DNA of 64,000 bases, from contig JAFWIU010000012.1 of NCBI GenBank assembly GCA_017514765.1, forward strand, positions 313 through 64,312, given 5' to 3'. Origin of the DNA: Candidatus Saccharimonadota bacterium. Lineage in GTDB: Bacteria; Patescibacteriota; Saccharimonadia; Saccharimonadales; Saccharimonadaceae. The position numbers were made by a program, and so were the translations under genes. The notes beneath the pieces are model-generated. The model saw only the letters and a program-made list of their open reading frames with translations. It ran no database searches and had not been told where the DNA came from. Positions 7,699 through 52,011 of the stretch are shown here, piece after piece. Position 1 is the first letter of the stretch. Each line of letters opens with the position of its first letter.

Positions 7699-10407
7699 AT
7701 GCTTAAAATCAAGCAAAAGAGGGGGATTTATAAACTTTATTTGAATCGAAGTCGGATTTTGTTGGCGTGTGCGGTTGCGCTGATTGTTTTTGGAGCTTTG
7801 GCACTGAAGCGTGTTTGGGCGACGGGGGAGGAAGGGCCAACTTTGACGTTAGAGTCAGTGTCCCAATACGGAGAACCGATTGAGCCGGAGTGGGATCCGC
7901 ATTTATTTAGAGGATTAGAGAGTTCTAATGACTGGGGTGATTATTACTATCAGGTTGCGAATAACATGGACAAAGTCACGGTGGGGGTGAGAGTGGACGG
8001 ACTAGAAGAGGGGAAGAATTACAAGGTTTTTAATGATCGGGTGGTGACGGCAGCGGATAATGGTACAGTGATTTATGGAGAAATGGAGCCGTCTGTATGG
8101 ATGGGGAGCTATACTTGCCATGAGAACGAGTGGGGCTGGGAGGAATGTGAGGGTGATATACATGCGAATGAATATACTGTGACTGTTGTTTTGAGTGACG
8201 ATGAGTGGACTTGGTATGGTGCAGTAACGGCGGTGCTGAGACCAGTGACGGTGGGTAGTAGTGATATTGAAATACTTTCGGTAAAACAAGATGGAGTGGA
8301 TGTGCATCTTGATACGGTGGGGAGGCAGGAAAACAATTTGAATGTGCCACAGACGATTAATGAGTACCAGTTAATGGATTATACTAAGCCAGTAACGATT
8401 GAATTCAAGGCGAAGAATTTGCATGTAGGATGGGAATATTCGTTGAGCGCTGGTAGTGAGCAGAGCATGTCGGCGACGGCGGATGCAAGTGAGATGGTAG
8501 GGTCGGTGGATGTGGATGTGAGTGCTCTAAGTAGGCATGCGAGTGTGCAGATGTCGTTTTATGGACATAGCACAGCGGCGTATGGAAGTGGATATGAAAT
8601 GCACGAGTCGAGCGTGGTGTTGTATTTTAATATTGCGGATGAAAATTTTGTACCGCTAGGTGACTTGGCGATAGAGGGAATAAGACAGGGTGGAGAGACG
8701 TTGAACGTGACTGAAAATGAGCTTACACATGAGTATGTGGTCAATGCGAATGATGTGCAAGATTTGGAAGTGGCTTTGAGAGCTACTGATGCGACTAGCG
8801 ATTTGGATTACTATGTAGGGTATAGTTTAAATCCGGCGTCGTCTTATTATTATGGGGCATCGGGGTGGATAATGGTGAGTGGAGCAGATTTGAAAGATGG
8901 AGTAACTCTAATGGTGCCGGCTAAATACGGTGAAAGCGAAAATTCACCTTTTGCGCTTAACCTTTATATGAGGACGACCGGTGGAATGTGGTCTTATAAT
9001 AGTGCACGTTATTGTTGGGGGCAGTGTGAATACGACTATGATAGCGATACAGTTGTGGTGAATTTCGAAGTCGATCCGAGTATTCCGCGGTACGTGGTAG
9101 ATTATGGTTATGCAGTATTTCAAGATGGGCAAGAGATTTTGCCAAATAATGAGGGGGTGTATATGATTACAGATTATACGAAATCAATAAGCCTAAGAGT
9201 TAACGTGAATGATGAAGAATCGGATTATTCTTTGAGTGGGCATTACGTTTCTCTTGGTGATGATGGTAATGAGATTGAGAGCAGACATAATAGTCAATAC
9301 GGTATATCTTCTACGATAACTGGTGGTGTTATGCAGTATGGTGTTAATGTATATTTGGATGTAAGTGCGAAGACTACACGGTTGGATTTGGCGATATATG
9401 ATGTAGTGGTGAATGAATATGGTTCATATAGTCAGAATAGGAAGTTGGAGGAATTTGCTCTGCGGTTTGCTTATGCAGATTACGATAGTGCGCATATACC
9501 GAGCCTTGAACTGACTGAGATGAGGCAAGGTGGTGCTGTGGTAAGTCCGGAAAACGAATATAATTATAAGATATTTCGTCTGAATTCGATTCAGGATTAC
9601 ACTTATAACGTGAGGGGATATAATCTGTTGGACGGGATAGAATATACTTCGTATGAAAACGGTATTGATCACACATATAGTAAAAGTGATTTAGAAAATG
9701 GAATGACTATTACGAGGTCGGTGAGTGATGCTAGTCGGAGTTTAGTGGGGAGTAGTAATTATTCTGCAGTGTTCGGTCATTACTTGGATTATCCAATGTA
9801 CGATGGAATGCCAGTGCAAGTGCGGACGGATAATTCTTTGAACGGAGATTTGGCGTTTTTCGATGCTTGTGTGCAGTATCGAGAAGATGAAGACTGTTTG
9901 TCGAGTTCATACCCATCGTATGGTTTGTTGCCATCTGTATATGGTGTGGTGGAAGATGTAGAAGACTATGATGCTGAGTACAATCCTTTAGAATTATATA
10001 TTAAGGGCGATAATTACGTAGACGATGTCGATTATGAGGTTAATGTGAAGGTTCTATATGGGAATGAGTTGCTGGTGGAAGATAATTTTGTTGCTACTGG
10101 GTTGAGTATCAAGAATGGTGTAGAAAAGGAATATTTTGATGAATTGAGGTTTGAAACGCTAGATCAGATGCTTGATGGGAGTTTTGAGGAAATCGGGTAT
10201 AATGTTGAAGTAACGATTGGCGAGATGACGCGAACGATAGATTTTATGGCTAATGGTGAAGCTATGGCAACTTCTGTAATGTTTACATCGGATGGGTTGA
10301 CGATTCCTGATTATATTAACAATATGGGTGGGCGGTATGGGAGCTACTGGCGGGAATCGGTTTGTAGGATATGGCGAGTGGCATATTTCGCGCGAGATAC
10401 TTGGTGA
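7699..10407 (+). CDS. Large secreted acidic beta-rich protein, N-terminal part (frameshifted from its dockerin-bearing C-terminal part)
   Basis: N-terminal TM/signal; four recurring domain-start motifs (LTLESVSQYG, IEILSVKQDG, LAIEGIRQGG, LELTEMRQGG); overlaps the next ORF in the +1 frame; composition changes abruptly after NNMGG. Confidence 0.75.
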   Translation: MLKIKQKRGIYKLYLNRSRILLACAVALIVFGALALKRVWATGEEGPTLTLESVSQYGEPIEPEWDPHLFRGLESSNDWGDYYYQVANNMDKVTVGVRVDGLEEGKNYKVFNDRVVTAADNGTVIYGEMEPSVWMGSYTCHENEWGWEECEGDIHANEYTVTVVLSDDEWTWYGAVTAVLRPVTVGSSDIEILSVKQDGVDVHLDTVGRQENNLNVPQTINEYQLMDYTKPVTIEFKAKNLHVGWEYSLSAGSEQSMSATADASEMVGSVDVDVSALSRHASVQMSFYGHSTAAYGSGYEMHESSVVLYFNIADENFVPLGDLAIEGIRQGGETLNVTENELTHEYVVNANDVQDLEVALRATDATSDLDYYVGYSLNPASSYYYGASGWIMVSGADLKDGVTLMVPAKYGESENSPFALNLYMRTTGGMWSYNSARYCWGQCEYDYDSDTVVVNFEVDPSIPRYVVDYGYAVFQDGQEILPNNEGVYMITDYTKSISLRVNVNDEESDYSLSGHYVSLGDDGNEIESRHNSQYGISSTITGGVMQYGVNVYLDVSAKTTRLDLAIYDVVVNEYGSYSQNRKLEEFALRFAYADYDSAHIPSLELTEMRQGGAVVSPENEYNYKIFRLNSIQDYTYNVRGYNLLDGIEYTSYENGIDHTYSKSDLENGMTITRSVSDASRSLVGSSNYSAVFGHYLDYPMYDGMPVQVRTDNSLNGDLAFFDACVQYREDEDCLSSSYPSYGLLPSVYGVVEDVEDYDAEYNPLELYIKGDNYVDDVDYEVNVKVLYGNELLVEDNFVATGLSIKNGVEKEYFDELRFETLDQMLDGSFEEIGYNVEVTIGEMTRTIDFMANGEAMATSVMFTSDGLTIPDYINNMGGRYGSYWRESVCRIWRVAYFARDTW

Positions 10408-11551
10408 TCATGCATACATGTATCTTGGGGCATTGAATGACGACATAGAGGGGGTGAATTATCATATTTATCATCACCCTGCTAGTGATGATGCAAATGA
10501 TTTGAGTGGAGCGAGATTGATGCGAGAGGGGGAGATTGGTATTAGCAGTGATGTGGGTTTGTTGCGACTTGAAAGAGATGATATGGAATACTATTATTAT
10601 ACTTTGGTGATAGAAAAAAATGGGCGGATTTTGGCGGTAATGCATTACAAGATGTGTTTAGATGATGTTCCGGCAACCTATGGGCTTGCGGTATCGGCGA
10701 GGACTGAGGAGGAGGATGCGTTAGTAGGTTACTATTTGACAAGGGAGGTGCCAGTTAAAGTGATGGCATACGGCGCGAGGTTTGATGAATCTAAAACTTA
10801 TACGGCTGGTATAGTAGTAAGATCAAATAGTGTTAAAACATATGAGGATTCTGTGAATGTGACCGGTGCGGAGCTCAATAGTGATACGGAATTGTTTACA
10901 GTGCAGTATAACGATATGTTTAGCCAGAATGTTTGGTTTTGTGATATAGAGTTTGTATTGAAAGATGAGAATGGTGGTACTATGTTGAACAGGTCGATTC
11001 ACTTAGCACGGGGAGATGGGGATGACTATGGAGGGTTTTACGAAAACGAGCTTGTGTATGCGATGATTCGGGCGCTAGAGCAAGGTGGTGAGGAGCCAGA
11101 GGAACCTGAGGAGGCAATAGTAGACGATAGGACGCCGGAAGGGGTGGATGTAATTGTGGAAGGTGGGACACTGACTGCAGTTTCGGAAAAACCTGTTACG
11201 GTAGCTGGTTATAGAAATGGCGAATGGATAAAACTATATGAGTGGGATGTAGTTGAAAACGGTGAAGAGAGAACCAATCATTACAGTATTGGTGATTGCG
11301 ATGAGGTAAAAGTAGTATTGAAGGGTGATGGTGACATGAATGGAATGGTGGATCCAGGGGATTTGAATCGTTTGAATAGGTCGTTGATTAGCCCAACTTT
11401 GGGAAGTAGGTATCGGGCTTTGACTGATTGGGAGAAAGTTATCTTTGATTTTGATGGAAACGGAGATGTAACGCCAGCAGATTTAAATACGCTTAATCGG
11501 GCATTGATTAGTCCAACGCTTGCGCCTAGGTATCGAGAGATACAGTGGTAG
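10328..11551 (+). CDS. C-terminal part of the same surface protein, ending in X-module plus type I-like dockerin
   Basis: Two F-hand Ca-binding repeats GDGDMNGMVDPGDLNRLNRSL and DFDGNGDVTPADLNTLNRAL; no signal peptide of its own. Confidence 0.8.
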   Translation: MGGMGATGGNRFVGYGEWHISREILGDHAYMYLGALNDDIEGVNYHIYHHPASDDANDLSGARLMREGEIGISSDVGLLRLERDDMEYYYYTLVIEKNGRILAVMHYKMCLDDVPATYGLAVSARTEEEDALVGYYLTREVPVKVMAYGARFDESKTYTAGIVVRSNSVKTYEDSVNVTGAELNSDTELFTVQYNDMFSQNVWFCDIEFVLKDENGGTMLNRSIHLARGDGDDYGGFYENELVYAMIRALEQGGEEPEEPEEAIVDDRTPEGVDVIVEGGTLTAVSEKPVTVAGYRNGEWIKLYEWDVVENGEERTNHYSIGDCDEVKVVLKGDGDMNGMVDPGDLNRLNRSLISPTLGSRYRALTDWEKVIFDFDGNGDVTPADLNTLNRALISPTLAPRYREIQW

Positions 11552-11563
11552 ATTGATTACAGT

Positions 11564-11596
11564 AAAAAGCATGCTCTAAAAAAGGGCATGTTTTTT
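11564..11596 (+). terminator. Intrinsic terminator
   Basis: AAAAAGCATGCTCT-AAAAA-AGGGCATGTTTTTT. Confidence 0.6.
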
Positions 11597-11621
11597 AAAG
11601 TGCTTATGTTATAATGTGGGT

Positions 11622-13313
11622 ATGAGCAAGCTCTTAAGTAATACGAAAGATTGTTTGGCGTTGTTTGGCGTATTAGTAATATGCTTGTTGTGTGGTTTCT
11701 ACTTGTTTAATAGTGGGGAGAAAATAGCCAATGGTGATTCGAGTGACGTAACTGAGTGTTCTGATGAGTGCATGGAGGAGTTTTTTGATTCTTATGCAGA
11801 AATGACGGCTAGTGGTGAGCAGGATAACATGTTGATAGTAGTTAGCTCTAACCGTCCAAATGATTATGAAGCAAGTGGAATAGTAGAGGGGCCGAACCAC
11901 ACTTATTATTTGATGTATAACGACTTAGAAAAACGAGACAATGCTTACGAACAATTTGCGAATGACGACACTGTAAGTGTCGAGAAGAATAACAAGATGG
12001 AATTACTAAACTATATGTCTTGGGGGATAGAACAGATGGGGATAGATGATGGTATTATTGCAAGAGGAGATGCAGGCGAAAATGTGAAGGTAGCCGTAAT
12101 CGACACTGGGTTGGATATGAATCGGTTTCTTGAATACTTCCCATCAAAAACTGTAAGCGTTTATGATGTGGTGTCAAATTCGGAATCACCGAGTGAGATG
12201 AGCGATGCGATTGGGCATGGTACACATATAGCTGGAACGATTGCCGAAGGAACGGCGGATTGTACAAGTCTGATGATATTTAAGGCTGAGAGAGATGGTA
12301 AGGTTACTGTGTCAGACGTGAATACTGCAATTTATAAAGCGATTGATGCTGGGGTAGACGTGATTAATCTGAGTTTAGGAAGTAATGATTATTCTGAAAG
12401 CCAGAAAAGGGCGATAGATATAGCGAGCGCAAATGATATTGTAGTGGTAGCTGCGGCGGGAAATGAAAACAATTCCGTAATTATGTATCCGGCTGGTTAT
12501 GATAATACTATATCGGTAGCAGCATTAGATAGGAATTTGGAAAGAGCGGTATGGAGTGCGGAAGATAATACTGGTTCGAACTATAATGCGATGATAGATT
12601 ATGCAGCGCCAGGGACGCGTATTCGGAGTATTAATGGATTCGCGAGTGGGACTTCGGTAGCGGCGCCGCATGTGACAGCGGCGGTAGCGTTATTGAAGAG
12701 TTATAATAATGATTTAGGATTAGACGAGGTGAATATGCTACTGAGGAAACATGTGGTGGATTTAGGTGAGGATGGTAGAGATGATTATTATGGTTATGGA
12801 ATGATTGATTTGAATGATGTGGAATTTTGTGAAAATGCTTATTGCGATGAGTATGGCGTGTTTGCAGTGGACGTGTCGATAGATGATTTGACAGGAGGAG
12901 TAGCTGAAATTGCAGTGTTGGATGATGGGATTATGGTAACGGCTGATGAAGCGTGTATGGTGGTAATAAGCAATGATAGTGGAGAAACGTATAATGTGGT
13001 GCCGACCATGACAGTTATCGGCGGGGGGGATAAGCATAAGTTTGAGTTTGAAATAACCAAAGAGGTTGAAGTATTGGTAGTATTGAAGGGTGATGGTGAT
13101 ATGGATGGTGTGATAACGCCAAGGGATTTGAATCTTTTGAGTAGATCGCTTCTTAGCACGACTGCAAATGGTAGATATAGGGCTTTGACTGAATTGGAAA
13201 AGATAGTTTTTGATTTTGACATAGATGGAAATGTGACACCAGCGGATTTAAATACGCTTAATCGGGCATTGATTAGTCCGACACTTAGACCCTATAAAGC
13301 CATAGAATGGTGA
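11622..13313 (+). CDS. Secreted subtilisin-like (S8) serine protease with C-terminal X-module plus dockerin
   Basis: VAVIDTG (D), GHGTHIAGTIA (H), AAAGN (N), GTSVAAPHV (S); dockerin repeats GDGDMDGVITPRDL and DFDIDGNVTPADL. ATG 11622 lies 6 nt after TG-t-TATAAT (track start 11616 abuts the -10). Confidence 0.9.
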   Translation: MSKLLSNTKDCLALFGVLVICLLCGFYLFNSGEKIANGDSSDVTECSDECMEEFFDSYAEMTASGEQDNMLIVVSSNRPNDYEASGIVEGPNHTYYLMYNDLEKRDNAYEQFANDDTVSVEKNNKMELLNYMSWGIEQMGIDDGIIARGDAGENVKVAVIDTGLDMNRFLEYFPSKTVSVYDVVSNSESPSEMSDAIGHGTHIAGTIAEGTADCTSLMIFKAERDGKVTVSDVNTAIYKAIDAGVDVINLSLGSNDYSESQKRAIDIASANDIVVVAAAGNENNSVIMYPAGYDNTISVAALDRNLERAVWSAEDNTGSNYNAMIDYAAPGTRIRSINGFASGTSVAAPHVTAAVALLKSYNNDLGLDEVNMLLRKHVVDLGEDGRDDYYGYGMIDLNDVEFCENAYCDEYGVFAVDVSIDDLTGGVAEIAVLDDGIMVTADEACMVVISNDSGETYNVVPTMTVIGGGDKHKFEFEITKEVEVLVVLKGDGDMDGVITPRDLNLLSRSLLSTTANGRYRALTELEKIVFDFDIDGNVTPADLNTLNRALISPTLRPYKAIEW

Positions 13314-13406
13314 GAAAGTGGGGTTGTGTAAAACTATTAAGAATTTAAAAATAGACGCTAGCGAAATGGAAAAATCTATGATAGTATAGATGAAAGGAGC
13401 AATCAT

Positions 13407-16400
13407 ATGTCAATAATAAACTATCTGAAAGAACGAAAAAAGTTAACGGGGATTGTCGCGGGTTTGGTCGCCGTGGCGATTGTTTTTGCTGGGTTGTTGT
13501 CAAATGCTTTTGCTAGTGTCGCTTATTATTTCCCAGATACTTTGGTGGAGCTGGATGGGGTGAATGACGGTACGATGACAGTTAGCTTCAATACTCCAGA
13601 AGCAGATGATATCGCTTACGTTCGGGGAAATTTTGACACTCTGATAGGTTACGATATGGAACACATGTATTTTACTTTGACCGGTATGTCTACTGGTGGG
13701 GATTTGTCGCCTGCAAAAATTACGAATAATACGGTTGCAGATGGTTTAATAAGTTGGTCGGATTGGGAAAGTGACCCTCCGATACACGTAGCAGAGCGAG
13801 GTCAATTACTCAGTGCAACATATATTGTGGACAAAGACACCCCGGCTGGTAACCATTCGGTTTGTTTGAGAGATATTTGGGTGGCGTCGGGCAAAAGTGA
13901 ATGGGATACCATAAATATCAATAGTGTGTGTGCAAATATTGAAGTAACGAGAAGTGATACTCCTGCGGAGAAACCGACTCAGGTGGTGACTTTCCGGGAT
14001 GGTGATGATAATCCGATTACGGAGATTACGAAATATTATGGTGATGAAGATTTTGAAATAAAGAAAGAAGTGACGACTGGCGATGGGGCTATACTAGAGT
14101 ATCATCCTGATGATGATGGAACTGGTAGGGTTGCACATACAGATCCGGATCTTAACTCTAATGTTGTGGGTGTAGGTGAGCCTGGCGATGTTGAGATTTG
14201 TGCTTGGGTAGAGGGGACGGGAAACTATGCGGCAACCAAAGCTTGCTATACAGTGCATGTGTTGAAGCGACCTATAACGATTTCTAGTGTAACGATTGAA
14301 GATAAGACATATGATGGTACGCCGAGTGCAGTAGTAACAAGTGTATCATTTGAAAATGGGGTGTTAACTAATGAGCAATATAATGTAACATCTGCATACT
14401 TTACTGGGACGAATGCGGCAGATGCTGGAGTTGATAAGCCGGTTCGTGTAAATGTGGAACTTGCAGGGACTGGTGTAGATTACTATACATTGAGTCCAGA
14501 TTATTATACGACAATTAAAACTATCTCGCCGTTTAATTTGAGTGTTGATGGTGCATCGTTTGCGAGTGGGGAAGATGAATATGCTTATGATCCAGATGGC
14601 GTAGAGCCAGAGATAAGAGTAGAAGCAAATACACATGGTGGCACTTCGGTATTGGTTGAAGGCGAGGATTTTGAAGTAGAGTATGTTAACAATACTGTTG
14701 CAGGGCAGGCTCAGGCAGTAATTACTGGTTTGGGGAATTATACGACTAGTGGTCCAGGTATTGTTCTGCCGTTTACAATCAACCCGAAAGGAATCATTAA
14801 CGAAAATGTGAACGCTCCAAGTTCGATTGTGGAAGGTCGTATCTTGGCTCCGGAAGATGTTTCTGTGAACGTGGATGGTCACACTTTGACGAGGTGCGCT
14901 ACGGATGGAGAGATGAATTGTGACTACGTGCTCACGATTTCTGGAGATAATGACGGTGAGGTGGGACATACTGTACATGTAGCAGTCAATGGTCGTAATA
15001 ATTATGATGGTGCTGGTGTTGCTGATGTGAATATTGTAGCAAAACAGGAACAGACTGTGACGATTGAGGATGTGACTGATACAATAGTGAATAAGAGTTA
15101 TGGTGATGCAAACTTTACATATGTTGCAATATCTACTGGTAACGGTGATATTTCGTATCGTTCGACTGCAGAAGCGGTAGCGACGGTAGATATGAATACT
15201 GGTGAGGTTTCGATTGTCGGAGTAGGTGATGCGGATATCATTGCTACAGCGGCGGAGAATGATACTTACGCTGAGGGCTCGGCGAAGTATACAGTGCATG
15301 TGGATAAGAAGGTGATTACGGTTACTAATGCGACGGTGGCGGATAAGACCTTTGATAATACTCCAGTTGCGACAGTAAGTGACGTGACTTTAAGTGAAGG
15401 CTCACTTGTTTATAATGCGGACTTTACTGCTACTGGTTTGTTCAATGATGTAACTCCTGCTATTCGTAATGTTAATGTAATGGTCGCTTTGACTAACGAA
15501 GCTTACAAGAACTATTGTTTTATGTATGAGTCTAGCTGTATTCAGAATACAAGTTATGCTGCAATTGGGACAATTATGCCATTTACGCTTGGTGGAGATA
15601 ACGCAGTGGCGGAATTGACGGAAGATACGTTTGTATACAACGGTTCGGAGCAGTGTCCGGCTGCAAATGTGAGGGTTGACCTTAACGGTAACGGTATAAA
15701 GGATGTTGTACTTTCAGCTGGAACCGATTATGATGTGGTATGTGATAATAATGTGAATGTGGGGACAAGTGCGACTGCTACAATAACTGGTAAAGGAAAC
15801 TATACTGGTAGTTTAGAGGGCTTAACTTTCTCGATTACACCGGCGACAGTGGAAGATGTAGCAGTGACTGCTGCTTCTCAAGATTATACAGGTGAGCCTT
15901 TGGAGCCGGTCGTGACGGTAACTGGTACAGTGAATGGTGAGAGTAAGACATTTACGACCGATGATTATGAAGTAGCGCCGCATGGTAATTTCATAACCGC
16001 TGGTGATTATACTGTAACTATTAATCCTAAGGTTGGTTCGAATTATAGTATTCCAAGTACAAGTGGTACCTTTACGATTAATAAAGTTGCGTCTGGTACC
16101 CCAGCGGAGTCTAGTCAGAATCTGAAGATTGAGGCTGGTAAAACTTTGTCGGAACTGGGTGACTTAAGTGAAGGATTTGTTTGGGCAGATGGTAGCACGG
16201 TAGTAAGCGAAGGTTCACACGATTATGATGCAACCTATACTAAGAATGGTGATACAGAGAATTATGTGACTGAGAACGTATCAGTAATAGTATATGGATT
16301 AAAGCGAATCGAAATAACGACTGCTATATTTGCTGGTGGCGAGGTTATGACTCCTGGTGGCACAGCACTCGAGGGTGATGAAATAAGCTGGACGATTACA

Positions 16401-16964
16401 CCGGATGAAGGATATGAATTGTGGCGTTTCTCAATCAATACGGAGGATAAAACTAGCGAAGTATCGGATGGTCAGTTTACGATGACTGCTGGTACGGAAG
16501 ATATTATGGCGATTGTATATTTCAGAAGGTTATACCAGTTTATTGATAGTATGGGGCAAACACATGTCCGAGGGGTAGATGGTACAGCAGAGTTTGAAAT
16601 TGATGCGGATTATGAGCTGTTTGAAGATGGTGGTAGGGTCTTCGTAGACGGTGAATTGCTTGATGAGGAAAACTATCGAGCTTGGAGTGGTAGTACTATG
16701 ATTGAGCTTTCGGCTGATTATCTGAATTCATTGACTATCGGTGAGCATACTTTAGCGGTAGAATTCGACGATGGTGGGATAGCGAGGACAACATTTGTGA
16801 TTGCTGATCCGGAGGCACCAGAAGAGGAAAAACCAGCAGCTGCAGATACTGGTGTATTCACTGGTATGAGGAATGGTGCAATTGCGACAGGTCTGTCTAT
16901 GGTGACAATGGGTGCTGTAGCTGGCTTATTATATGGAATAAAGAAACGAAACAATAGAGCATAA
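13407..16964 (+). CDS. Cell-surface-anchored scaffoldin-like protein: N-terminal cohesin-like domain, YDG/Ig-like stalk, X2-like module, xADTG-TM-basic tail
   Basis: Signal peptide; residues ~38-181 fit cohesin pattern (G-LLSATYIVDKDTPAGNHSVCL-DI); KTYDGT and KTFDNT (YDG-like) repeats; VDG-LL---NY----GST-I-LS--YL-SL--GEHTL-V-FDDG (X2-like); AADTG, TM, IKKRNNRA. Confidence 0.7.
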   Translation: MSIINYLKERKKLTGIVAGLVAVAIVFAGLLSNAFASVAYYFPDTLVELDGVNDGTMTVSFNTPEADDIAYVRGNFDTLIGYDMEHMYFTLTGMSTGGDLSPAKITNNTVADGLISWSDWESDPPIHVAERGQLLSATYIVDKDTPAGNHSVCLRDIWVASGKSEWDTININSVCANIEVTRSDTPAEKPTQVVTFRDGDDNPITEITKYYGDEDFEIKKEVTTGDGAILEYHPDDDGTGRVAHTDPDLNSNVVGVGEPGDVEICAWVEGTGNYAATKACYTVHVLKRPITISSVTIEDKTYDGTPSAVVTSVSFENGVLTNEQYNVTSAYFTGTNAADAGVDKPVRVNVELAGTGVDYYTLSPDYYTTIKTISPFNLSVDGASFASGEDEYAYDPDGVEPEIRVEANTHGGTSVLVEGEDFEVEYVNNTVAGQAQAVITGLGNYTTSGPGIVLPFTINPKGIINENVNAPSSIVEGRILAPEDVSVNVDGHTLTRCATDGEMNCDYVLTISGDNDGEVGHTVHVAVNGRNNYDGAGVADVNIVAKQEQTVTIEDVTDTIVNKSYGDANFTYVAISTGNGDISYRSTAEAVATVDMNTGEVSIVGVGDADIIATAAENDTYAEGSAKYTVHVDKKVITVTNATVADKTFDNTPVATVSDVTLSEGSLVYNADFTATGLFNDVTPAIRNVNVMVALTNEAYKNYCFMYESSCIQNTSYAAIGTIMPFTLGGDNAVAELTEDTFVYNGSEQCPAANVRVDLNGNGIKDVVLSAGTDYDVVCDNNVNVGTSATATITGKGNYTGSLEGLTFSITPATVEDVAVTAASQDYTGEPLEPVVTVTGTVNGESKTFTTDDYEVAPHGNFITAGDYTVTINPKVGSNYSIPSTSGTFTINKVASGTPAESSQNLKIEAGKTLSELGDLSEGFVWADGSTVVSEGSHDYDATYTKNGDTENYVTENVSVIVYGLKRIEITTAIFAGGEVMTPGGTALEGDEISWTITPDEGYELWRFSINTEDKTSEVSDGQFTMTAGTEDIMAIVYFRRLYQFIDSMGQTHVRGVDGTAEFEIDADYELFEDGGRVFVDGELLDEENYRAWSGSTMIELSADYLNSLTIGEHTLAVEFDDGGIARTTFVIADPEAPEEEKPAAADTGVFTGMRNGAIATGLSMVTMGAVAGLLYGIKKRNNRA

Positions 16965-27926: not shown

Positions 27927-29477
27927 TTAAATGCCGGTGAGGGGGGAGATGTCGGCGCCGAGGTGGCGGAGGCGGGCGGCGAAGTCTTGGTAGCCGCGAT
28001 TGATAGGGTAGACGTTACGAAGAATGGATTGGCCGGGGGCGGCGAGCATGCCGATCAGGATGACAACAGCGGGACGGAGTGCTTGCGGAGCAACGAGCTC
28101 GGTGGGGCGCCAGTTGGTGGGTCCTTCGATGTAGACGCGGTGAGCGTCGAGGAGTTCGACTTTAACGTTGAGATTGGCGAGTTCAGTAGTGTAAACGGCG
28201 CGGTTTTCGAAGACCCAGTCGTGGATAAGAGTACGGCCACTCGCGACAGCAGCGATGACGGAAAAGAAGGGAAGATTGTCAATATTAAGACCTGGGAAAG
28301 GCATGGGGTGAATTTTGTCGACGGGTGCGACGAGGCTGGATTTTTTGATATATAGATCAACGAGGCGGGTGCGATTGTTGGAGGAGAGGTATTCGGGGGA
28401 TTTGTCGATGATAGCATGCATGTTTTTCAAGACTTCGAGTTCGATTTCGAGGAATTCGATGGGTGCGCGCATGATAGTGATTTCGGAGTTGGTAGCAAGG
28501 GCGGCAGTGATGAAACTCATGGCTTCGATGGGGTCTTCAGAGATATTATATTCAACGTCTTGATTGAAGAACGGACGACCTTGAACGACGAGGCGGGTAG
28601 TACCGATGCCGGAAATCTTAACGCCGAGTTGTTCGAGGTAGAAACAAACGTCTTGAACCATGTAGTTAGGCGAGGCGCCGACGATGGTGGTCTTGCCAGG
28701 GGCGAGGGCGGCGGCCATGAGAACGTTTTCAGTGACGGTGTCGCCACGCTCAGTAAGGACAATATAACGGTCGTGGTATTTATGAAGAGTTTCTTGTCGG
28801 ACTTCGACTTCGTAGAAGCCACTATGACATTCGGCGTCAACGGTGAGGCCGAAAGATTTGAGAGCTTGAAGGTGTGGTTCGACGGTGCGAGTACCGAGTG
28901 AACAACCGCCGGCGTAGGGGATTTTGAATCTAGGATAGCGGTGAAGTAGAGGGCCGAGGAACATAATAATAGAGCGGGTACGGCGGGCAGCTTCGATGTC
29001 CATTTCGTCGAGTTTTAATTCGCGGGGTGAGATAATTTCGAGGTCACGATGGCGGTTGGTCCAGTGGCATTTGACACCGATAGATTCCAAAACTTCGATA
29101 ATGCGGAAGACTTCTTCGATGCGGGCGATATGACGAAGGGTGGTCTTGCCGGTGTTGAGAAGGGTGGCACACAGGAGGGCAACGGCAGCGTTTTTGGAAG
29201 TATTGATGGTGATTTCACCGTGCAATTCTTTGCCGCCGCGGATGCGAAAACTTTGTCCAGCTGAGTCATTAACAGAGAGGATTTGGGTGCCGAGAGCTTC
29301 AGAGAGTTTCTTGATCATTTCAAGGGAAATGTTCTGGCCACCTTTTTCGATACGGTGGATGGCGGACTGAGAGGAGCCGACTTGTTCAGCTAATTCTTCT
29401 TGAGTCCAACCTTTTTCGATGCGCATTTGTTCGATGGCCTCACCGATGACTTGTTGATATGACAGTGTTTTCTTCAT
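27927..29477 (-). CDS. murA: UDP-N-acetylglucosamine 1-carboxyvinyltransferase with N-terminal XRE helix-turn-helix
   Basis: N-terminal WTQEELAEQVGSSQSAIHRIEKG; SKNAAVA, GGCSLGTR (catalytic Cys), SEDPIEA, FENR, ALRPA. Confidence 0.9.
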   Translation of the reverse strand: MKKTLSYQQVIGEAIEQMRIEKGWTQEELAEQVGSSQSAIHRIEKGGQNISLEMIKKLSEALGTQILSVNDSAGQSFRIRGGKELHGEITINTSKNAAVALLCATLLNTGKTTLRHIARIEEVFRIIEVLESIGVKCHWTNRHRDLEIISPRELKLDEMDIEAARRTRSIIMFLGPLLHRYPRFKIPYAGGCSLGTRTVEPHLQALKSFGLTVDAECHSGFYEVEVRQETLHKYHDRYIVLTERGDTVTENVLMAAALAPGKTTIVGASPNYMVQDVCFYLEQLGVKISGIGTTRLVVQGRPFFNQDVEYNISEDPIEAMSFITAALATNSEITIMRAPIEFLEIELEVLKNMHAIIDKSPEYLSSNNRTRLVDLYIKKSSLVAPVDKIHPMPFPGLNIDNLPFFSVIAAVASGRTLIHDWVFENRAVYTTELANLNVKVELLDAHRVYIEGPTNWRPTELVAPQALRPAVVILIGMLAAPGQSILRNVYPINRGYQDFAARLRHLGADISPLTGI

Positions 29478-29613: not shown

Positions 29614-32600
29614 GTGTTGTCAAAGAGAATAAAGAATAGAGGAATTGTTGTGGTTGTCGTCATGTTGAGCTTTTTGTTTGCCTGTAATTGTGATGTCAAA
29701 ACTACACTTGCTTATTCTGCTTCTATTACTACCTCTAACTCGATTGTTCTAAATGCAGCCTTAATCAGTAACGGTACCTCAATCCATGCTGAGTCCATTA
29801 ATGTTCAATCGGATTGTAGGAGTGGCTATAATCTAACTATTGCTGTACCGGAAGGCAGTGATTTGTATAGATATGATAATGGTAATCAAGCGGTCAATGC
29901 TTCTTTTACTGCTGTAGATGGTGTATCGGCTCTCAATAGTAGCAATAATACTAATAAATGGGGTTATACCTTGACTAATGATGCTAATGCTAGCACGGTT
30001 TTTTATCCACTTTCATCCAATGAATCAGTTTTAAAAACTTCTACTCAGACTGCAAGTGCCAGCGATATTAATGATACATTCTCGATTTATTATGGGGTAA
30101 AAACAGATAATACGATTGAACCTGGCGTATACCAGATGGCTAATAACGGTTCCGTTGTTTATTATCTAACTATGGATGTTACTTGTACTCAATATACTGT
30201 ATCGTTTGATCCCAATGGCGGCACTGTAACGAGTGGAGGGAATAATCCTACTCAGGCTATTCAACAAGGAGAACTTACCAATTTGAATTCAGCAGAATTA
30301 TTGCAAGCGCCAACAGCCGCTTCTTATACCGATGCAGATAACAATACTATAAATGGTGATGCTGATAAAGTTTGGGTTTTCTGGGGTTGGAATACTAAAG
30401 TAGATGGTACTGGCGATTGGTATAAGGATAAGGAAGCAGTGGAGAATTTGACAGCTGCAGGAACTACCATTACACTTTATGCTCAGTGGAAACAGGCTAC
30501 CTTAATCGATTTGGCTGTAGGGACTCAAGTGGGTACCGAAAAGGTTATTGATCATAATACTATGCAAGATATGAGTGCAGGCATTTGTTATAATTCTACG
30601 GCTTATTCTATAGATACTAGTTCTGATGCGTACAGTCCGTATAATGCATCTACTAATCCAAACGGTTATCATACTGTTACTTTGAATGATTATCGTGGTA
30701 AAGTCACTGTTGGCGAGAATTTGGAGTTACCAGAACAGTATAACGTTTCTAGACTCGCGGATGGGTTGTGTTGGATGACGACTAACCTTAACCTCGGTAG
30801 AAGTGGTACGGATGGGCCGAATGGTGATGGTACAGTTACGCTCACTTCGGAAGATTCCGATTTGGCCAATAATGCTACTTTTGCATTGCCTGCACATTCT
30901 ACTACTAGTAGTACTGCAAATAATACTGCTAGAATTCGAATAACCAATAATGATGGTAATAACGATAATGGTGTTTTTTATTCTTGGGCAGCTGCCGTAG
31001 CTGGAGTTGTGTCGAATCCCACAGTTTCGGTTTGTCCGAAGAATTGGGATTTGCCAAATAGAGCACAATACGATAATTTACAAACAAAAATGGACTATAA
31101 GTCTGGTAATTCGCCTACTTCACTGCCTGGTGCATTTCTGTTAAGTGGAGGGTTTACGAATGGCGCTACTTTTTATCAGACTAGTTATGGGCACCTTTGG
31201 ACGACACAACCAAGTACCTCGGCGGCATATGGAGCAAGGATAGAAAGTGCAAGAGTATTAACCAGTTTAACTAGTAACACTACTTATGGTGGGAATAAGT
31301 ATTATGAGAAAAATGTGAGATGTGTAGCAAGTAAGGGCCGAGCAACTGTTAACTATGATGGCAATGGGACAACGGAATACCCAGTGACTGGTAGTACGTC
31401 TTCGCAGGTAAATGTAGAAATAAATAGTACGAATACACGGGCTAGTAGTGGTTTTATTAGGACTGGATGGATTTTCAAGAACTGGAATACCGCATCGGAT
31501 GGTAGTGGTGTTGCGATAGCTGCTAGCACGGCACTTTCTGCCTTAAACATTAAGCCTAGTGATACGATTACGCTTTATGCTCAGTGGACGCCGGTTTATA
31601 AGATTACTTATGTCAATAATTGCGCTACTTATAATACAGGATGCACTACGACTACTTCAAATACTACTTCTATACAGAATATTAATCTGACAAGCTATCC
31701 AAGTGGTGGCACAGAATCTGGTACACTTGGTGCATTTGATAAATTCACGCAAAGTGGTTGGAAGATTAAAGAATGGACAACCAATGCAGACGGTACTGGT
31801 ACGTCGTATCTGATATCTAGTAGCTATACGGTGCCGAGTGGTTCGGCGCCAGGGGATGGAATTACGTTGTATGCCCATTGGGTGCCGGTTTATTCTATTC
31901 AGTATGATGGTAATGGTGCGGATAATCCTGATGGTATGGGTACCACGAATGCTTCTGGTGTCAAAGCTGTTAGGCATATTAATGTGAGTGGGGGTGATCC
32001 CGTGACATTTATAGCTAGTAATTTTAAACGTACTGGGTATGGGTTTGTGGGCTGGTCTACTGATCCTGATGCGTGGACTCATTTTATGGATAATGATAGT
32101 ACTAATGATTCGGTAATATATGGTCCGATGGAGACTATATCGGCTCCAGCTGATTCTGGAAATAATACAAGCACTATGACGGTGTATGCGGTTTGGGTGG
32201 AGGCAGAGAAGGACGGTAACAATAATCCGATTTATCTTCAGGACTTTACGGGTTCGGACTGTAGTGCTCTTACGGGGACGGAATTTGACACAAATACGGG
32301 TGCTATTAGTGTGGGCGAGGTTATTGCGCTTACGGATAAGCGTGATAATGAAGTTTATGCGGTAGCGAAGCTTGCCGATGACCACTGTTGGATGGTGGAA
32401 AACCTGAGATTGGAATCTGCTGGGACATTGGGGAATAATATCAATGATAGTAGTGTAACGAACCAAAGTCTTGCTCAAGGCTATGGTGGTATTACGGGGA
32501 GAAATGGGAATTTTGTGGGGTTAGCCAATCCGGAGTCTTCCAGTAGCTGGAATAGCACAGCATCAAATAGTATTTATAAGTCATCTGCCAGTACGCCGTT

Positions 32601-33207
32601 GGATACTTATGATCCTATTAATGGTGTATTGGAGGATATCGGATCATTGGACAACCCGATTCATCGTTTTCCGCGATATGATAATAGTCCCAAAAGTAAT
32701 CTTAATGGTATTTCACATACGAGGAATCATGGTAATCCATCAAATAATACTGGTACTTTTCCTGGTAATCTGTATTCTTATGGCGATTTGTACACTTGGA
32801 GTGCGGCGATGGCTAATACATCTCATTATGTTGGAGCGAGGGAGGTAAATGTTGCTGGAGAGATTTCGGAGACTGTGGGTACTTCAATTTGTCCATACGG
32901 TTGGCGTTTGCCAACTGGGGGTAGTTCTACCAAAGAGTTTGCTGCTCTTGCTAAGGCTTATGGTGGGACTGGTGTAAATCAATCTGGTGCAGTGAACTCT
33001 GGTGACGTGATGTCGAACCGTTTGCGAACGTTTCCAAATAACTTTGTTTTTTCTAGAAGTGGTGCTGACGGTAGGTATTGGACTACCTCGAGCTGGAATA
33101 GTTCTAACGGAAATGTCTTTTTCTTAAATAGTACGAGATTAGATCCAACTGAGCATTGGGGTAAGAACTCTGCTTATGCCGTGCGTTGTTTTATGGATGA
33201 ATCTTAA
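29614..33207 (+). CDS. Secreted protein with four InlB-B/Listeria-Bacteroides-like repeats and two FISUMP (Fib_succ_major)-like domains
   Basis: Repeats Y-V-F/YD-NG...LYAQW; FISUMP-like motifs CWM-TNL, YSWAAA, VCPKNWDLP, NVRC and CWMVENL, YTWSAAMA, ICPYGWRLPT, YWT, AVRC. Confidence 0.8.
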   Translation: MLSKRIKNRGIVVVVVMLSFLFACNCDVKTTLAYSASITTSNSIVLNAALISNGTSIHAESINVQSDCRSGYNLTIAVPEGSDLYRYDNGNQAVNASFTAVDGVSALNSSNNTNKWGYTLTNDANASTVFYPLSSNESVLKTSTQTASASDINDTFSIYYGVKTDNTIEPGVYQMANNGSVVYYLTMDVTCTQYTVSFDPNGGTVTSGGNNPTQAIQQGELTNLNSAELLQAPTAASYTDADNNTINGDADKVWVFWGWNTKVDGTGDWYKDKEAVENLTAAGTTITLYAQWKQATLIDLAVGTQVGTEKVIDHNTMQDMSAGICYNSTAYSIDTSSDAYSPYNASTNPNGYHTVTLNDYRGKVTVGENLELPEQYNVSRLADGLCWMTTNLNLGRSGTDGPNGDGTVTLTSEDSDLANNATFALPAHSTTSSTANNTARIRITNNDGNNDNGVFYSWAAAVAGVVSNPTVSVCPKNWDLPNRAQYDNLQTKMDYKSGNSPTSLPGAFLLSGGFTNGATFYQTSYGHLWTTQPSTSAAYGARIESARVLTSLTSNTTYGGNKYYEKNVRCVASKGRATVNYDGNGTTEYPVTGSTSSQVNVEINSTNTRASSGFIRTGWIFKNWNTASDGSGVAIAASTALSALNIKPSDTITLYAQWTPVYKITYVNNCATYNTGCTTTTSNTTSIQNINLTSYPSGGTESGTLGAFDKFTQSGWKIKEWTTNADGTGTSYLISSSYTVPSGSAPGDGITLYAHWVPVYSIQYDGNGADNPDGMGTTNASGVKAVRHINVSGGDPVTFIASNFKRTGYGFVGWSTDPDAWTHFMDNDSTNDSVIYGPMETISAPADSGNNTSTMTVYAVWVEAEKDGNNNPIYLQDFTGSDCSALTGTEFDTNTGAISVGEVIALTDKRDNEVYAVAKLADDHCWMVENLRLESAGTLGNNINDSSVTNQSLAQGYGGITGRNGNFVGLANPESSSSWNSTASNSIYKSSASTPLDTYDPINGVLEDIGSLDNPIHRFPRYDNSPKSNLNGISHTRNHGNPSNNTGTFPGNLYSYGDLYTWSAAMANTSHYVGAREVNVAGEISETVGTSICPYGWRLPTGGSSTKEFAALAKAYGGTGVNQSGAVNSGDVMSNRLRTFPNNFVFSRSGADGRYWTTSSWNSSNGNVFFLNSTRLDPTEHWGKNSAYAVRCFMDES

Positions 33208-43718: not shown

Positions 43719-44660
43719 TTACTTCGTAATGATAGTGCCGGCTTTGCCGGAGAGGGCTGCGGCGAGGTGGTCGATATCTGTAATGATGCCGATACGGTTG
43801 GGTTTTTTGGCAAATTCGGTAGTAGCTTCGATTTTGGGAAGCATGGAGCCGGCTTTGAAATAGCCTTCCTTGATGTATTTGGCGAGTTCTTTGGTGGTAA
43901 TCTTGTGGATGGGTTGGGCGTCTGGTTGTCCGAAGTTAATATAGGCATTGGGTACCGCAGTGACGGAGACGAAAACGTCGGCGTTGACTTCTTCGGCGAG
44001 GCGTTCGGCGGCGAAATCTTTGTCAATGACGGCATCGATGCCTTTGAGGCGTTTTAGAACTTTGGTGCGATAGACGGGAATACCACCACCGCCGGCGGCG
44101 ATAACAATGACACCATCTTTAATTAATTCACGGATAGTACGTTTTTCGACAATGTCGATGGGCTTGGGTGAGGCGACGACGCGGCGCCAACCACGTCCAG
44201 CGTCTTCCTTGACGACCCAATGATTGACTTTGGCGAGAGCTTTGGCTTGTTTTTCGTTATAGAATTGGCCGATGGGTTTGGTGGGGTTACGAAAAGCGGG
44301 ATCGTTTACGTCGACAACAACTTGCGAAATAATGGTGGCGACTTTACGGTGTTGGTTTTTCTGAGCGAAGGCGTTATGGATGGCTTGAGTGAGCCAATAG
44401 CCGATTTGTCCTTGACTCATTGCGACGGCAGTTTCGAGCGGCATAGCGGGGGCTTTGTCGGTAGAGGCTTGTTCTTCGTGAATGAGGATGTTACCGACTT
44501 GAGGGCCATTACCGTGAGCGATGACAATTTCGTATTTGTGAGCTAATGCAGCAACAACGGTGCCAACAATGTTAGCAACCTTCTTCTGAGCTTCAGCGGT
44601 GACTTCGCCGTTTTTCTGTAGGGCGTTACCACCAAGTGCTAAGACGATACGTTTTTTCAT
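43719..44660 (-). CDS. arcC: Carbamate kinase
   Basis: VLALGGNAL, HGNGPQVG, SQGQIGY, GWRRVVASP, GGGGIPV, VIDKD, GSMLPKI. Confidence 0.96.
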   Translation of the reverse strand: MKKRIVLALGGNALQKNGEVTAEAQKKVANIVGTVVAALAHKYEIVIAHGNGPQVGNILIHEEQASTDKAPAMPLETAVAMSQGQIGYWLTQAIHNAFAQKNQHRKVATIISQVVVDVNDPAFRNPTKPIGQFYNEKQAKALAKVNHWVVKEDAGRGWRRVVASPKPIDIVEKRTIRELIKDGVIVIAAGGGGIPVYRTKVLKRLKGIDAVIDKDFAAERLAEEVNADVFVSVTAVPNAYINFGQPDAQPIHKITTKELAKYIKEGYFKAGSMLPKIEATTEFAKKPNRIGIITDIDHLAAALSGKAGTIITK

Positions 44661-44704: not shown

Positions 44705-47700
44705 ATGGTAAAAAGGTTTTTGACACTAGCGACTGTTGCACTATCTGCTGTGATGATATATGGAGTGGCAAATGCTTTTGTGATACCAGAAAACCTTCTG
44801 AAAGAGTATTCGGCTAATGATATTTATTTCATAGATCCGTGCGCGAGTGGCGCGAATAGCAATCGTGGTAATGGCTGTGTGGGGACTTTGCCAGGCAGTA
44901 ATAATGCGGAGCTGACCTGGAATGCGATTGTGGAGGCAAATGTGGACGGTGTGTCGAATAACCCAGCGGCGATTGCGGGGATAATGGGGAATTTGATGCA
45001 GGAGACGGGGTTTGATCCGTTTGAGCAAAAGGGAAAATATTATGGTATTCATATGACTCCGGATCAGGAGTTTATTGATGTAATAAATAATGCAGGACTT
45101 GGTCAATATTGGGGACGTGGTAATGAAGCGCCAAAAGAGGCTGTGAAGCAGGCGATAGAGTTGGAAATCAATTGGATTATGAAGACGAACGAGAGGTTTT
45201 TGGGTGTAGGAACATGGGAAGGCAGAGGCTTTATGAGCTTTGTGAATGATGTGTCAGAGAATACGCCGGAGGCTTATTCTGATTTATTTCTGACGGCTGT
45301 AGAAGATGCTGATTGGCCTAGCTCACAGAGTCAATGGAAGGGTAATAATATAATAGAGGAACCAGCGGCGAAGGAGGTGGGTAGGAGGGTTCGTGGTGAA
45401 GAAATGTATTATCAGGAAGCAGAAGTGAGGCGTGATTACGCGAGGGAGTTTTATGAAAAGTATGGTTCGTCTGGCGTGTGTAATCTAGGGGGAGCGTTTA
45501 ATGGAACTGAAGTGACGTGGCAAGATTTGGCGCCCTTGGGTACTAATGATAGGTTGAAGCTGTTGGTGGAGCGTTATGGCGAGTACGCAATGCAATTACA
45601 GAAGTATTATGGGATACCGTGGGAATTGCCGTTTGCGGTGATGGTGTTTGAGTCGGAGGTGGGTACTAATACCAATAGTGTTTCGTATTTAGTGCAACAA
45701 GCTGGTTATTATAATATGATGGGGCTAACGTACCCGGTGCCGGGGGAACATGAGGAATATGTAGTGGATAGATATCGGGTGACAAATGCGGGTGACAATG
45801 GGTGCTTTAGAAACGAAAAGTATAAGCAATGTCACGTAGCATATGAATCGATATCTAAGATGTTGCTAGGGTATACGATTTATCATGGTCGGAGCGGCTA
45901 CGAGGGGGATGCGTCATATGATGGTGGATTAAAGTTGCTTTCGCCAAGTAATTACAATTTAAATGACGCAATAAAGAAACTAATGCATTCTTATTGTGGT
46001 ACTACTACATCTTCGACTTACTGTGGTGATGGAACTGGTATTACTGATGTTATTAGGGGAGGGACATCAAGGCTGGCAAAAGACTATAGCGGGTTAATGG
46101 ATGTGGTAAAAGAAAAGGGATGGATGAACTCGGAAGAGTTAGCGAAGGCTTGGAATATCCAACCGGGTGGGATAGCGACGCAGCAGTGGGGATGGGGTGA
46201 TATTAGGGAACAAATTTGGAATGCTTATGGTGAAGCAGGATTACCTGGTAATGCATCAGCTACAACTGGAGCGACTTCGATTACTGGTGGAACTGCAAGC
46301 ACTGGAACTATGAGTGGCTCACTAGTGGGAAATGCGGTACTGCATAAGCCGCAAAATGAGTGGTTGGAAAACGCTGGTTTGGAAGGATATATTAAGGATC
46401 CGGTAACACCGGGGGGAGCTAACGGTATAAGAGTTGATTCGAGCGCTTCAGATGGTTCGAATTATACGGAATTTGCAAGTGATGCAGGAGCTGGATCGGG
46501 ATTACCAGGATTTATAGTGTTACATTTAACGGAGGCGGATAACTTTGATAAGAGGTCTTGGCAGAACTTTAAAGGTGATGGTGTATATGTGCCGCCACAT
46601 TTTACAATTGATGTGAAAAAACGAGAGGTTTTCCAGCATTTTCCGTTATCTCATCCATCGGCGGCGGTGAAGAGGCGTAATGGTATGGTACCGGATAAGT
46701 ATGGTATTCAAATCGAAATTGTGGGTCATGGTGGCGACGATAGAGGAGACAATCTTGAAACATGTATACATGGTGCTTGCAGTGATGAATATAACTTTAG
46801 AAACTTCACGGAGGAGGACTACGAATATCTCGCTAAGCTACTAATTGCGATTAGTAATGAGACTGGGATTCCTTTGACTAGCTCGGTTCAGTGGGCGAAG
46901 ACGGCGGAGGAAGCGCCGAGTTTAATAATAAAAGATGACGAAGAATTAAAAAAGTATATTGGTGTGCTTGGTCATACACATGTGAACGGGAAATGGGACC
47001 CACTGAATCTATGGGAATACCTTGAGCCGGTATTAGCAAAAATGGGCTATAGTTATAATACGAGTGCGTATAGTAATTCGGTTAATTGTGGGAATAGTGG
47101 TCTAGGTGCTACTTTGTTACGTGGACATTGTTTTGATATCCCGAGTGGTGATGGTGGATGTACTGAAGATGGATTTACATGGTTTGGACAAGGCGGCGAC
47201 TCGTGGAGTACAAAACAGTACGGTAAGAAATGCGGTGGTTCTACTATGAGATCGTCTGGATGTGGTCCATCGGCGATGGCGATGGTGGTTACAGCGTTGA
47301 CTGGTCAATTAGTGAAACCGGATGAGATGGCTGAAAAAGCGGATGAAGTAGGCGCAAGAATATGTGGTAGCGGTACTGACGTTGTAACAATGACAACAAA
47401 AATAGCTCCTATGTATGGATTGCAAGCACAGTGTGTTCCGTCTTCTCAAGTAACTGTTGATAATGTAAACAAATGGTTTGATGAGGGTAAAATGGCTGTT
47501 TTCTCTGTTGGTAATGAGTACTCTACTGAGTTTGGTCCGATGGGATCTGCTAACGGTCATGTAGTAGCCTTACGTGGAAGGGCAAGTGATGGTAAATGGT
47601 ATACTTTTGATAGTTCGCGCCGAGATGTGCCAAAGAATGACAGACATTATAAGCCCGAGGAGGTAGTGAAGGCGTTCCAAGCGCATGGAAGGGACAATTT

Positions 47701-48336: not shown

Positions 48337-48371
48337 AAACGCTTGCGCTTAAAAACAACTTAATATATAAT
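48337..48371 (+). promoter_or_regulatory. Promoter of agmatine deiminase operon with AAAACGCTTGCGCTTA motif
   Basis: TTGCGC (48343-48348), 17 nt, TATAAT (48366-48371); the same 16-mer occurs at 52012-52027. Confidence 0.7.
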
Positions 48372-48378
48372 GTGGGTT

Positions 48379-50842: not shown

Positions 50843-50845
50843 TTT

Positions 50846-50878: not shown

Positions 50879-50910
50879 GTGCTATTATGGTATCTAAGGA
50901 GGTAATATTT

Positions 50911-52005: not shown

Positions 52006-52011
52006 TAATAC

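Follow-up and report, generated by a model that had tools for sequence, protein, structure and literature searches.

The sequence analysed here (the window) is a 64-kb piece of a Saccharibacteria (TM7) genome from animal gut, and all positions refer to it unless another locus is named. This report concerns three consecutive genes, A, B and C. Genes A and B end in dockerins, each directly preceded by a conserved module of about 70 amino acids (aa) that we call the X module, while gene C begins with what is predicted to be a divergent cohesin. The window holds two such X-dockerins and one cohesin. The genes and open reading frames (ORFs) of the cluster are as follows.

Positions 7699 to 10407, forward strand: N-terminal part of gene A, a 902-aa ORF with a signal or transmembrane segment, matching the N-termini of its orthologues.
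Positions 10301 to 10407, forward strand: interval of a +1 frame break in gene A; the frame of the second half is open from 10301 onwards, and the ORF of the first half ends at 10407.
Positions 10328 to 11551, forward strand: ORF A, the C-terminal part of gene A (407 aa), with an X module and dockerin A.
Positions 11616 to 13313, forward strand: gene B (565 aa), with a signal or transmembrane segment, an S8 subtilase domain, an X module and dockerin B.
Positions 13407 to 16964, forward strand: gene C (1185 aa), with a signal peptide, the cohesin, a stalk of about 950 aa and a tail resembling a sorting signal.

The docking modules of genes A and B, and the one exact repeat that they share, lie at these positions.

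Positions 11111 to 11323, forward strand: X module of A, about 70 aa directly upstream of dockerin A, matched by the A6 profile, of which it is itself a row.
Positions 11306 to 11548, forward strand: dockerin A, with calcium-loop/helix repeats starting at 11327 and 11447, found by Pfam, by regular expression and by a profile search of the PDB.
Positions 11480 to 11514, forward strand: 35-bp exact repeat, copy 1, within dockerin A, in the helix of its second repeat.
Positions 12867 to 13088, forward strand: X module of B, residues 430-503 of the open frame, matched by the A6 profile (again itself a row of it) and alignable with the X module of A.
Positions 13071 to 13310, forward strand: dockerin B, with repeats starting at 13092 and 13212, found by Pfam and by regular expression.
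Positions 13245 to 13279, forward strand: 35-bp exact repeat, copy 2, in dockerin B.

Exactly four calcium-loop repeats were found in a six-frame regular-expression scan of the 64 kb, all of them within dockerins A and B. All four conform to D-x-D-x-(N/D)-G-x-(V/I)-(D/T)-P-x-D and continue with LNxL(N/S)R(S/A)L(I/L)S, and the arrangement is that of a two-repeat dockerin (a calcium loop plus helix of about 22 residues, with Asp or Asn at positions 1, 3, 5, 9 and 12). When the modules are scored alone, the Pfam model Dockerin_1 (PF00404; gathering cut-off 22.9 bits) gives 30.0 bits for B and 23.0 bits for A; scored within the whole protein, dockerin A reaches 18.4 bits and lies under the cut-off. 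A profile built from ten dockerin modules was compared with the PDB, and its first 18 matches are all dockerins, the best being 2ccl_B (Clostridium thermocellum Xyn10B; E 4.9e-6). Calmodulins appear in this list only above E 0.02 and EF-hand families of Pfam match weakly (E 0.03-0.18), as might be expected if the modules were EF-hand-like, bound calcium for the sake of stability and had no protein partner. We consider this very improbable, since dockerin models and solved dockerins score far better, the modules are always accompanied by an X module and then by a cohesin gene, and their variable positions are the canonical recognition positions, which match between the paralogues. The Pfam and PDB profile results thus identify the modules of A and B as dockerins rather than plain EF-hands, and by their sequence they are type I-like. 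The two repeats are identical at 21 of 30 positions within A and 14 of 30 within B, a symmetry that would allow a dual binding mode. The subtype is rare, being represented by 11 short fragments in a large protein collection. Its dockerin is always preceded by the conserved X module of about 70 aa, for which a profile search of the PDB gave no sequence match. In anchoring dockerins of types II and III, the X module on the N-terminal side takes part in cohesin binding.

Dockerins A and B share 70% of their residues and 75.4% of their nucleotides in a MAFFT alignment of 80 codons, a likeness that, as homology, is far above chance. In a BLASTP comparison the alignment is confined to the C-terminal 133 residues (A 276-407 with B 434-565; 49% identity, E 9e-29), from which it follows that the homology covers the dockerin and the 60-70 aa module upstream of it and that the remainder is unrelated. 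The original prediction had described very similar dockerin segments with an identical 35-bp stretch, a Pro at position 10 and a DLNxL(N/S)R helix in all four repeats, and one module carried by unrelated cargos. Each of these observations was confirmed: the 35 bp are exact at both sites, the six-frame scan returned the motif in every repeat, and the cargos are an S8 subtilase and a large protein without a Pfam match. It had also taken the likeness as a sign of recent shared ancestry, and this did not hold. Synonymous divergence between the two dockerins (dS≈0.71; nonsynonymous, dN≈0.21) is too high for copies of recent origin. Given the amino acids in common, the length of the 35-bp run is within expectation (shuffle test, P≈0.06), and we rejected it as evidence of recent gene conversion.

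The same 35-mer forms a separate unitig in four gut-metagenome runs, at a depth of 41 against 17 and 15; about double depth is what is expected of a two-copy sequence. It breaks k=31 unitigs in every run examined, and an assembly built from short reads could put the tail of dockerin B on cargo A or vice versa. Given this repeat, metagenome-assembled genomes (MAGs) of the lineage are worth checking for chimeric dockerin ends.

The cargo of gene B is a protease. Residues 154-395 match Pfam Peptidase_S8 (PF00082; E 4.9e-39), and the translation carries the Asp, His and Ser catalytic motifs VIDTG, HGTH and GTSVAAP. We compared the locus with those of three relatives, a Candidatus Nanosyncoccus MAG (L001), an uncultured Saccharibacterium (L002) and a Saccharibacteria MAG from goat jejunum (L003), and with a further Saccharibacteria locus (L029) that ends 84 bp into gene C, which places its cohesin outside the comparison. 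Full-length orthologues of gene B share 69% (L003), 60% (L001) and 57% (L002) identity with the window protein. The L002 orthologue (L002 9112-11235; 707 aa) has a CHAP domain after the dockerin (Pfam E 1.6e-15), the dockerin being internal in this protein. A peptidoglycan-hydrolase domain on the docked protease of one relative hints that displayed cargo acts on the cell envelope. No glycoside hydrolase family was found above threshold in gene A or gene B.

Gene A is split in this strain. Its N-terminal ORF, which has no Pfam family at threshold, matches residues 1-480 of the orthologues of about 1026-1046 aa in L001-L003; in L029, where the protein of 1008 aa is intact, the match covers residues 1-437. 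Residues 91-407 of ORF A match orthologue residues of about 680-1042 in another frame, and in a tblastn search residues 666-1008 of the L029 protein fall on window positions 10577-11548, frame 2. By these matches the ORFs at 7699-10407 and 10328-11551 are the halves of one ancestral gene, which measures 1008-1046 aa in four relatives. The cargo of dockerin A, misjudged in the original prediction, is correspondingly larger than the 407-aa ORF. In Logan contigs from four public runs the break region reads as it does in the window, without an indel, and the break is consequently not a one-off assembly error. An error of assembly was considered as its cause and judged unlikely, the four agreeing runs coming from at least three studies. 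The break is either genuine, the gene having recently become split or a pseudogene in this strain, or it is a site of read-through. Owing to the frameshift, the protease is probably the only protein docked in this strain.

The features of gene C that matter for docking are two.

Positions 13515 to 13958, forward strand: divergent cohesin domain, residues 37-184 of C, identified by family profile, AF2 model and Foldseek.
Positions 16833 to 16961, forward strand: C-terminal tail with PAAADTGVFTG, a hydrophobic stretch and the basic end KKRNNRA, read from the translation.

Pfam recognises the YDG and Flg_new_2 (InlB-B-repeat) families and, weakly, CBM_X2 in gene C. Its N-terminal domain is not matched by the Pfam Cohesin model (PF00963), and a word-indexed protein search with the N-terminus of C found nothing. 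An exhaustive HMMER search, by comparison, recovered 43 representative relatives of the domain. In nearly all of them the domain stands right behind the signal peptide, and one has three tandem copies followed by a dockerin. When a family profile of 37 segments (A4) was compared with the PDB, the top five matches were cohesins (E 0.0012-0.03), led by ScaB cohesins of Ruminococcus flavefaciens (E 0.0012-0.002) and including a ScaB cohesin of Pseudobacteroides cellulosolvens (4ums; E 0.007). Ten of the 37 segments match Pfam Cohesin weakly, the best at E 5e-4. An AF2 model from the single sequence was useless (predicted local distance difference test, pLDDT, 39.5). With the family alignment, residues 37-184 gave an all-beta model with pLDDT 93.6 and a predicted template modelling (TM) score of 0.88, in keeping with the cohesin fold, which is a nine-stranded beta-sandwich (jelly roll) of about 140 aa. 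The best Foldseek match of this model is the fifth cohesin of R. flavefaciens ScaB (5n5p_A; E 3e-6, TM scores 0.69/0.73, root-mean-square deviation 3.3 Å, probability 1.00). It is followed by cohesins of C. acetobutylicum, C. perfringens, Archaeoglobus fulgidus and C. thermocellum, and the top of the list consists almost exclusively of cohesins. On this modelled fold and on transitive homology, C(37-184) is a divergent cohesin. Since standard domain models miss it, cohesin surveys based on hidden Markov models would overlook systems of this kind.

The tail of gene C is of a type, [AN][DN]TG[VT]FTG, that also occurs in the orthologues and in several representatives of the cohesin family. It may be an LPXTG-like sorting signal that acts as a wall anchor. 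Representatives of the family end in LPXTG-like tails, in S-layer homology (SLH) repeats or in X-dockerins, which fits an anchoring or scaffolding role.

The cluster is conserved as a unit. The gene order A-B-C is kept in L001, L002, L003 and L029, that is in five Saccharibacteria genomes with the window, and in these four relatives an orthologue of gene C (52-66% identity) immediately follows gene B. The dockerins of any one genome agree at the classical recognition positions (10, 11, 13, 14, 17 and 18), and the residues found there are genome-specific. These read TPADLN..NR in the window and in L003, SSADSN..NR in L001, and (S/T)TADSN in L029, its third dockerin included; in L002 they are NARDSAKIKYY in repeat 1 and TARDAALVDYS in repeat 2. 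The one shared recognition code that had been proposed for the window is thereby supported, the dockerins of each of the five genomes having a code in common. The third dockerin of L029 belongs to a separate X-dockerin ORF (L029 2474-3439; P0048) beyond genes for AdoHcyase, NusA and RNase J; given its shortness, it may be no more than a fragment.

Between genomes the docking modules diverge together. Dockerins A and B are 70-74% identical within each of four genomes, and dockerin identity between genomes drops to 26-37% in comparison with L002. Across four genomes, which give six non-independent pairs, the pairwise identities of the cohesin correlate with those of dockerin A (r=0.97) and of dockerin B (r=0.91). 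The cohesin shows no such relation to the stalk of the same protein (r=-0.02), and the S8 domain is flat at 68-70%. Between L003 and L002 the stalk is 79% identical, the cohesin 28% and the dockerins 27-30%, with a sharp switch at the domain border. In gene A, the window and L029 share 72-88% of residues in the X module, about 50% in the dockerin and 31-38% in the rest of the protein. Such uneven identities indicate mosaic genes whose docking modules move, or evolve, together. The adjacent cohesin, which the original prediction had named as one possible partner of the dockerins, thus becomes a plausible one, having a cohesin fold, standing in the next gene and co-diverging with both dockerins.

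The same pattern might nevertheless arise without any binding between the modules. Conversion would then keep the two dockerins alike, the co-variation of cohesin and dockerin B would reflect a single tract, and any true partners would lie elsewhere in the genome or the cohesin of C would bind something else. Only 94 bp separate the end of dockerin B from the start of gene C, so that a tract of about 0.9 kb spans both modules; the dockerins have the exact 35-bp run in common, and the genes are indeed mosaic, the X module of A being 72-88% identical to that of L029 between flanks of 31-54%. Dockerin A, however, lies about 1.5 kb upstream, beyond the S8 domain with its constant 68-70%, and it tracks the cohesin better than dockerin B does. 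The third dockerin of L029 has the same code although three housekeeping genes stand in between, the dS of about 0.7 speaks against recent conversion, and the order of X-dockerin and then cohesin recurs in other genomic backgrounds, as described below. We regard an origin of the pattern by linkage and conversion alone as unlikely.

An X-dockerin of the same subtype followed by an anchored protein that starts with a C-type cohesin was found in two further genomic backgrounds, L024 and L025-L028. In L024 (5655-10771; GC 41%) a 978-aa leucine-rich-repeat protein ending in an X-dockerin is followed by two tandem cohesin genes. In each product a signal peptide and the divergent cohesin are followed by a long linker of Pro, Thr and Asp and by a PNTG-like motif or a transmembrane tail. 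In L025-L028 (GC 54-56%; one locus labelled human gut) an adaptor with a cohesin and an X-dockerin precedes a cohesin-Big_2-SLH protein. The set has three tiers, as seen in L027 (1142-11641) and likewise in L025, L026 and L028. The first is a 2507-aa CotH-domain protein with a canonical dockerin, the second a 434-aa adaptor with a Pfam Cohesin domain and an X-dockerin of the subtype found in A and B, and the third a 545-aa protein with a divergent cohesin, Big_2 repeats and three SLH repeats. The L025-L028 locus also looks to contain recombinase-like and other mobile-element-like ORFs, by reading and not by domain scan.

These loci bear on a further proposal, that the dockerins serve as hooks which bind a cohesin of a cellulosome producer, or of another bacterium with the cohesin subfamily of C on its surface, and in this way tether the epibiont or deliver its protease. 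This subfamily is present on an SLH-anchored protein in the high-GC loci, one of which carries the human gut label, and the X-dockerin that precedes the protein has a similar helix motif, xRS[LI][LI], and a similar C-terminal end, Y-x-x-[LI]-x-W. By fold and by profile the nearest solved cohesins come from the rumen bacterium R. flavefaciens. The organism itself occurs in gut metagenomes (the window stretch is present in five public runs with 99-100% of the sampled words), with sheep and bovine gut runs matching at a lower share, and the CHAP domain on the docked protease of L002 is a hint of action on a cell wall. Against this, every relative encodes its own cohesin in the next gene, and this cohesin changes with the dockerins from genome to genome, which would not be expected if a host protein exerted the selection; the recognition residues also differ from those of the high-GC-locus and L024 dockerins. 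A cohesin that is self-encoded, syntenic and co-varying makes an external partner unnecessary. For a hook onto the cellulosome of a host in particular there is no positive evidence here, and we think it doubtful that the dockerins act on foreign cohesins in place of their own.

Taken together, we infer that genes A, B and C probably make up a minimal, self-contained system of a ruminant-gut Saccharibacterium, in which proteins are displayed by cohesin–dockerin docking of a non-cellulosomal kind. Gene C would encode a secreted protein of about 1200 aa, with its cohesin at the distal N-terminus, a long repeat stalk and an LPXTG-like anchor. The S8 protease of gene B and the large, beta-rich protein of the ancestral gene A would be secreted as well, each ending in an X-module-dockerin dyad. 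Both dockerins would bind the single cohesin of C in a Ca2+-dependent manner and through the same recognition residues, so that either the protease or the large protein would be displayed, alternately, at the tip of the stalk on the epibiont surface. Between lineages the cohesin and the dockerins would diversify jointly, their specificities staying matched, through replacement of modules, gene conversion and selection. A role of the displayed proteins at the host cell may be envisaged.

Several observations weigh against this. The cohesin domain by itself has no Pfam (E≤10) or PDB sequence match, and phmmer and a profile of four orthologues also returned nothing relevant from the PDB. The tail of C matches no NCBIfam anchor model, its AADTG motif is not a canonical LPXTG, and there is no sortase among the window ORFs scanned. 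Gene A is broken in this strain, which separates dockerin A from the signal peptide and the N-terminal 900 aa that belong to it. The correlation between cohesin and dockerins comes from few and interdependent pairs; the adjoining dockerin B and cohesin (13071-13958) could be swapped by one recombination tract, and conversion between the dockerins could by itself maintain their likeness. The window is 64 kb of a genome, and more cohesins or dockerins may exist elsewhere in it. A search for RNA runs for the window found none.

The closest known counterpart of the proposed display system is the type III anchoring of R. flavefaciens. In that bacterium ScaE is sortase-anchored and binds the X-module-dockerin of ScaB; there, and as proposed here, a single wall-anchored cohesin takes up an X-module-dockerin dyad. 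The best structural and profile matches of the window cohesin are likewise ScaB cohesins of R. flavefaciens (5n5p, 5m2o, 5aoz), at an identity of just 11-14%. Unlike the R. flavefaciens system, A-B-C has no multi-cohesin scaffoldin, no carbohydrate-binding module (CBM) and no glycoside hydrolase cargo; its cargos are a protease and a protein without a Pfam match, no solved structure is detectably related in sequence to its X module, and its bearer is a Saccharibacterium and not a Firmicute. A cellulosome has a scaffoldin with several cohesins and a CBM, and its dockerins are borne by carbohydrate-active enzymes. The system described here, with a single cohesin in the window and neither a CBM nor a glycoside hydrolase among its cargos, is not one.

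The best sequence matches of the dockerins are the type I dockerins of C. thermocellum (Xyn10B; 2ccl/1ohz), which also have two symmetric 22-residue calcium-loop/helix repeats. In C. thermocellum the repeats stand about 33 residues apart, whereas in the window they are 39-40 residues apart, each with a conserved SPTLxxRYRxL tail and a Pro at position 10, and an X module comes before them. The amylosome of Ruminococcus bromii resembles the window system in being a gut cohesin–dockerin system with non-cellulolytic cargo, and the dockerin of its Amy16 (9qf9) matches the profile at E 3e-4. Its cargo consists of amylases on several scaffoldins; the window, by contrast, has one cohesin, and its cargos are a protease and an adhesin-like protein.

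Cohesin and dockerin modules outside cellulosomes, such as those of glycosidase complexes in C. perfringens and a cohesin of A. fulgidus, were described by Peer et al. 2009 (FEMS Microbiol Lett 291:1), cited here via PMC10066038. As far as that account extends, such pairs are often carried by proteases or other hydrolases and are few per genome, and in this the window pair is like them; the top fold matches include a cohesin from each of these two organisms (2vo8 of C. perfringens, 2xdh of A. fulgidus). Within the same limits, A-B-C differs in being a cassette of three syntenic genes, in which the cohesin is mounted on a stalk and two or three dockerins would compete for it.

Within the Saccharibacteria, the nearest report is that of SEML1_0315 of Southlakia epibionticum (Wang et al. 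2023, PMC10633639), an envelope protein with a dockerin domain that was essential by transposon sequencing and for which a host glycan was suggested as target. It is like the window system in being a dockerin-bearing envelope protein of a Saccharibacterium, a likeness drawn from its description alone, and no cohesin partner was reported for it. In a survey of the camel rumen, cohesins were found in Firmicutes_A only (PMC9177762), and our search of the searchable literature returned no paper on a cohesin in Saccharibacteria. The kind of system is thus known, and a cohesin–dockerin docking kit in Saccharibacteria was previously not.

The surface organisation and host contact of Saccharibacteria and other epibionts of the candidate phyla radiation are largely obscure, and the window locus offers a candidate partner for dockerins in these organisms. 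It suggests that reduced genomes may keep a modular docking system which displays a protease and a large surface protein, and the co-diversifying cohesin and dockerin sets are a compact natural series of specificity variants. A more speculative extension, to which we assign a low probability, is that cohesin/X-dockerin sets are interchangeable specificity cassettes that diversify between co-resident Saccharibacteria, and that the dockerins might also engage a cohesin of the host cell. If true, the system would be a determinant of attachment and host range for gut Saccharibacteria, with a protease, and in one relative a CHAP domain, placed on the host wall.

The genes of the window lie nearly all on the forward strand, and GC skew is strong. 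Neighbours of the A-B-C cluster are housekeeping genes and an arginine-deiminase cluster, and a scan for promoters and terminators around A-B-C gave a result no better than that for shuffled sequence. The arginine-deiminase cluster (48370-54303) comprises two carbamoyltransferases, an amino-acid permease, an agmatine deiminase (PAD_porph) and an arginine deiminase; with a carbamate-kinase-like gene at 43719-44660 on the reverse strand it looks like an arginine/agmatine deiminase energy pathway. Positions 44705-47719 encode a 1004-aa protein with four domains of cell-wall-hydrolase type, namely phage-tail lysozyme, glucosaminidase, amidase_2 and a C39-like peptidase. A putative surface protein of 1197 aa (29614-33207) has FISUMP (Fibrobacter-succinogenes-major) and Listeria-Bacteroides repeat domains and no dockerin. 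At 27927-29477, on the reverse strand, an EPSP-synthase-family (MurA/AroA-like) protein is fused to an N-terminal Cro/C1-type helix-turn-helix domain, an unusual pairing.

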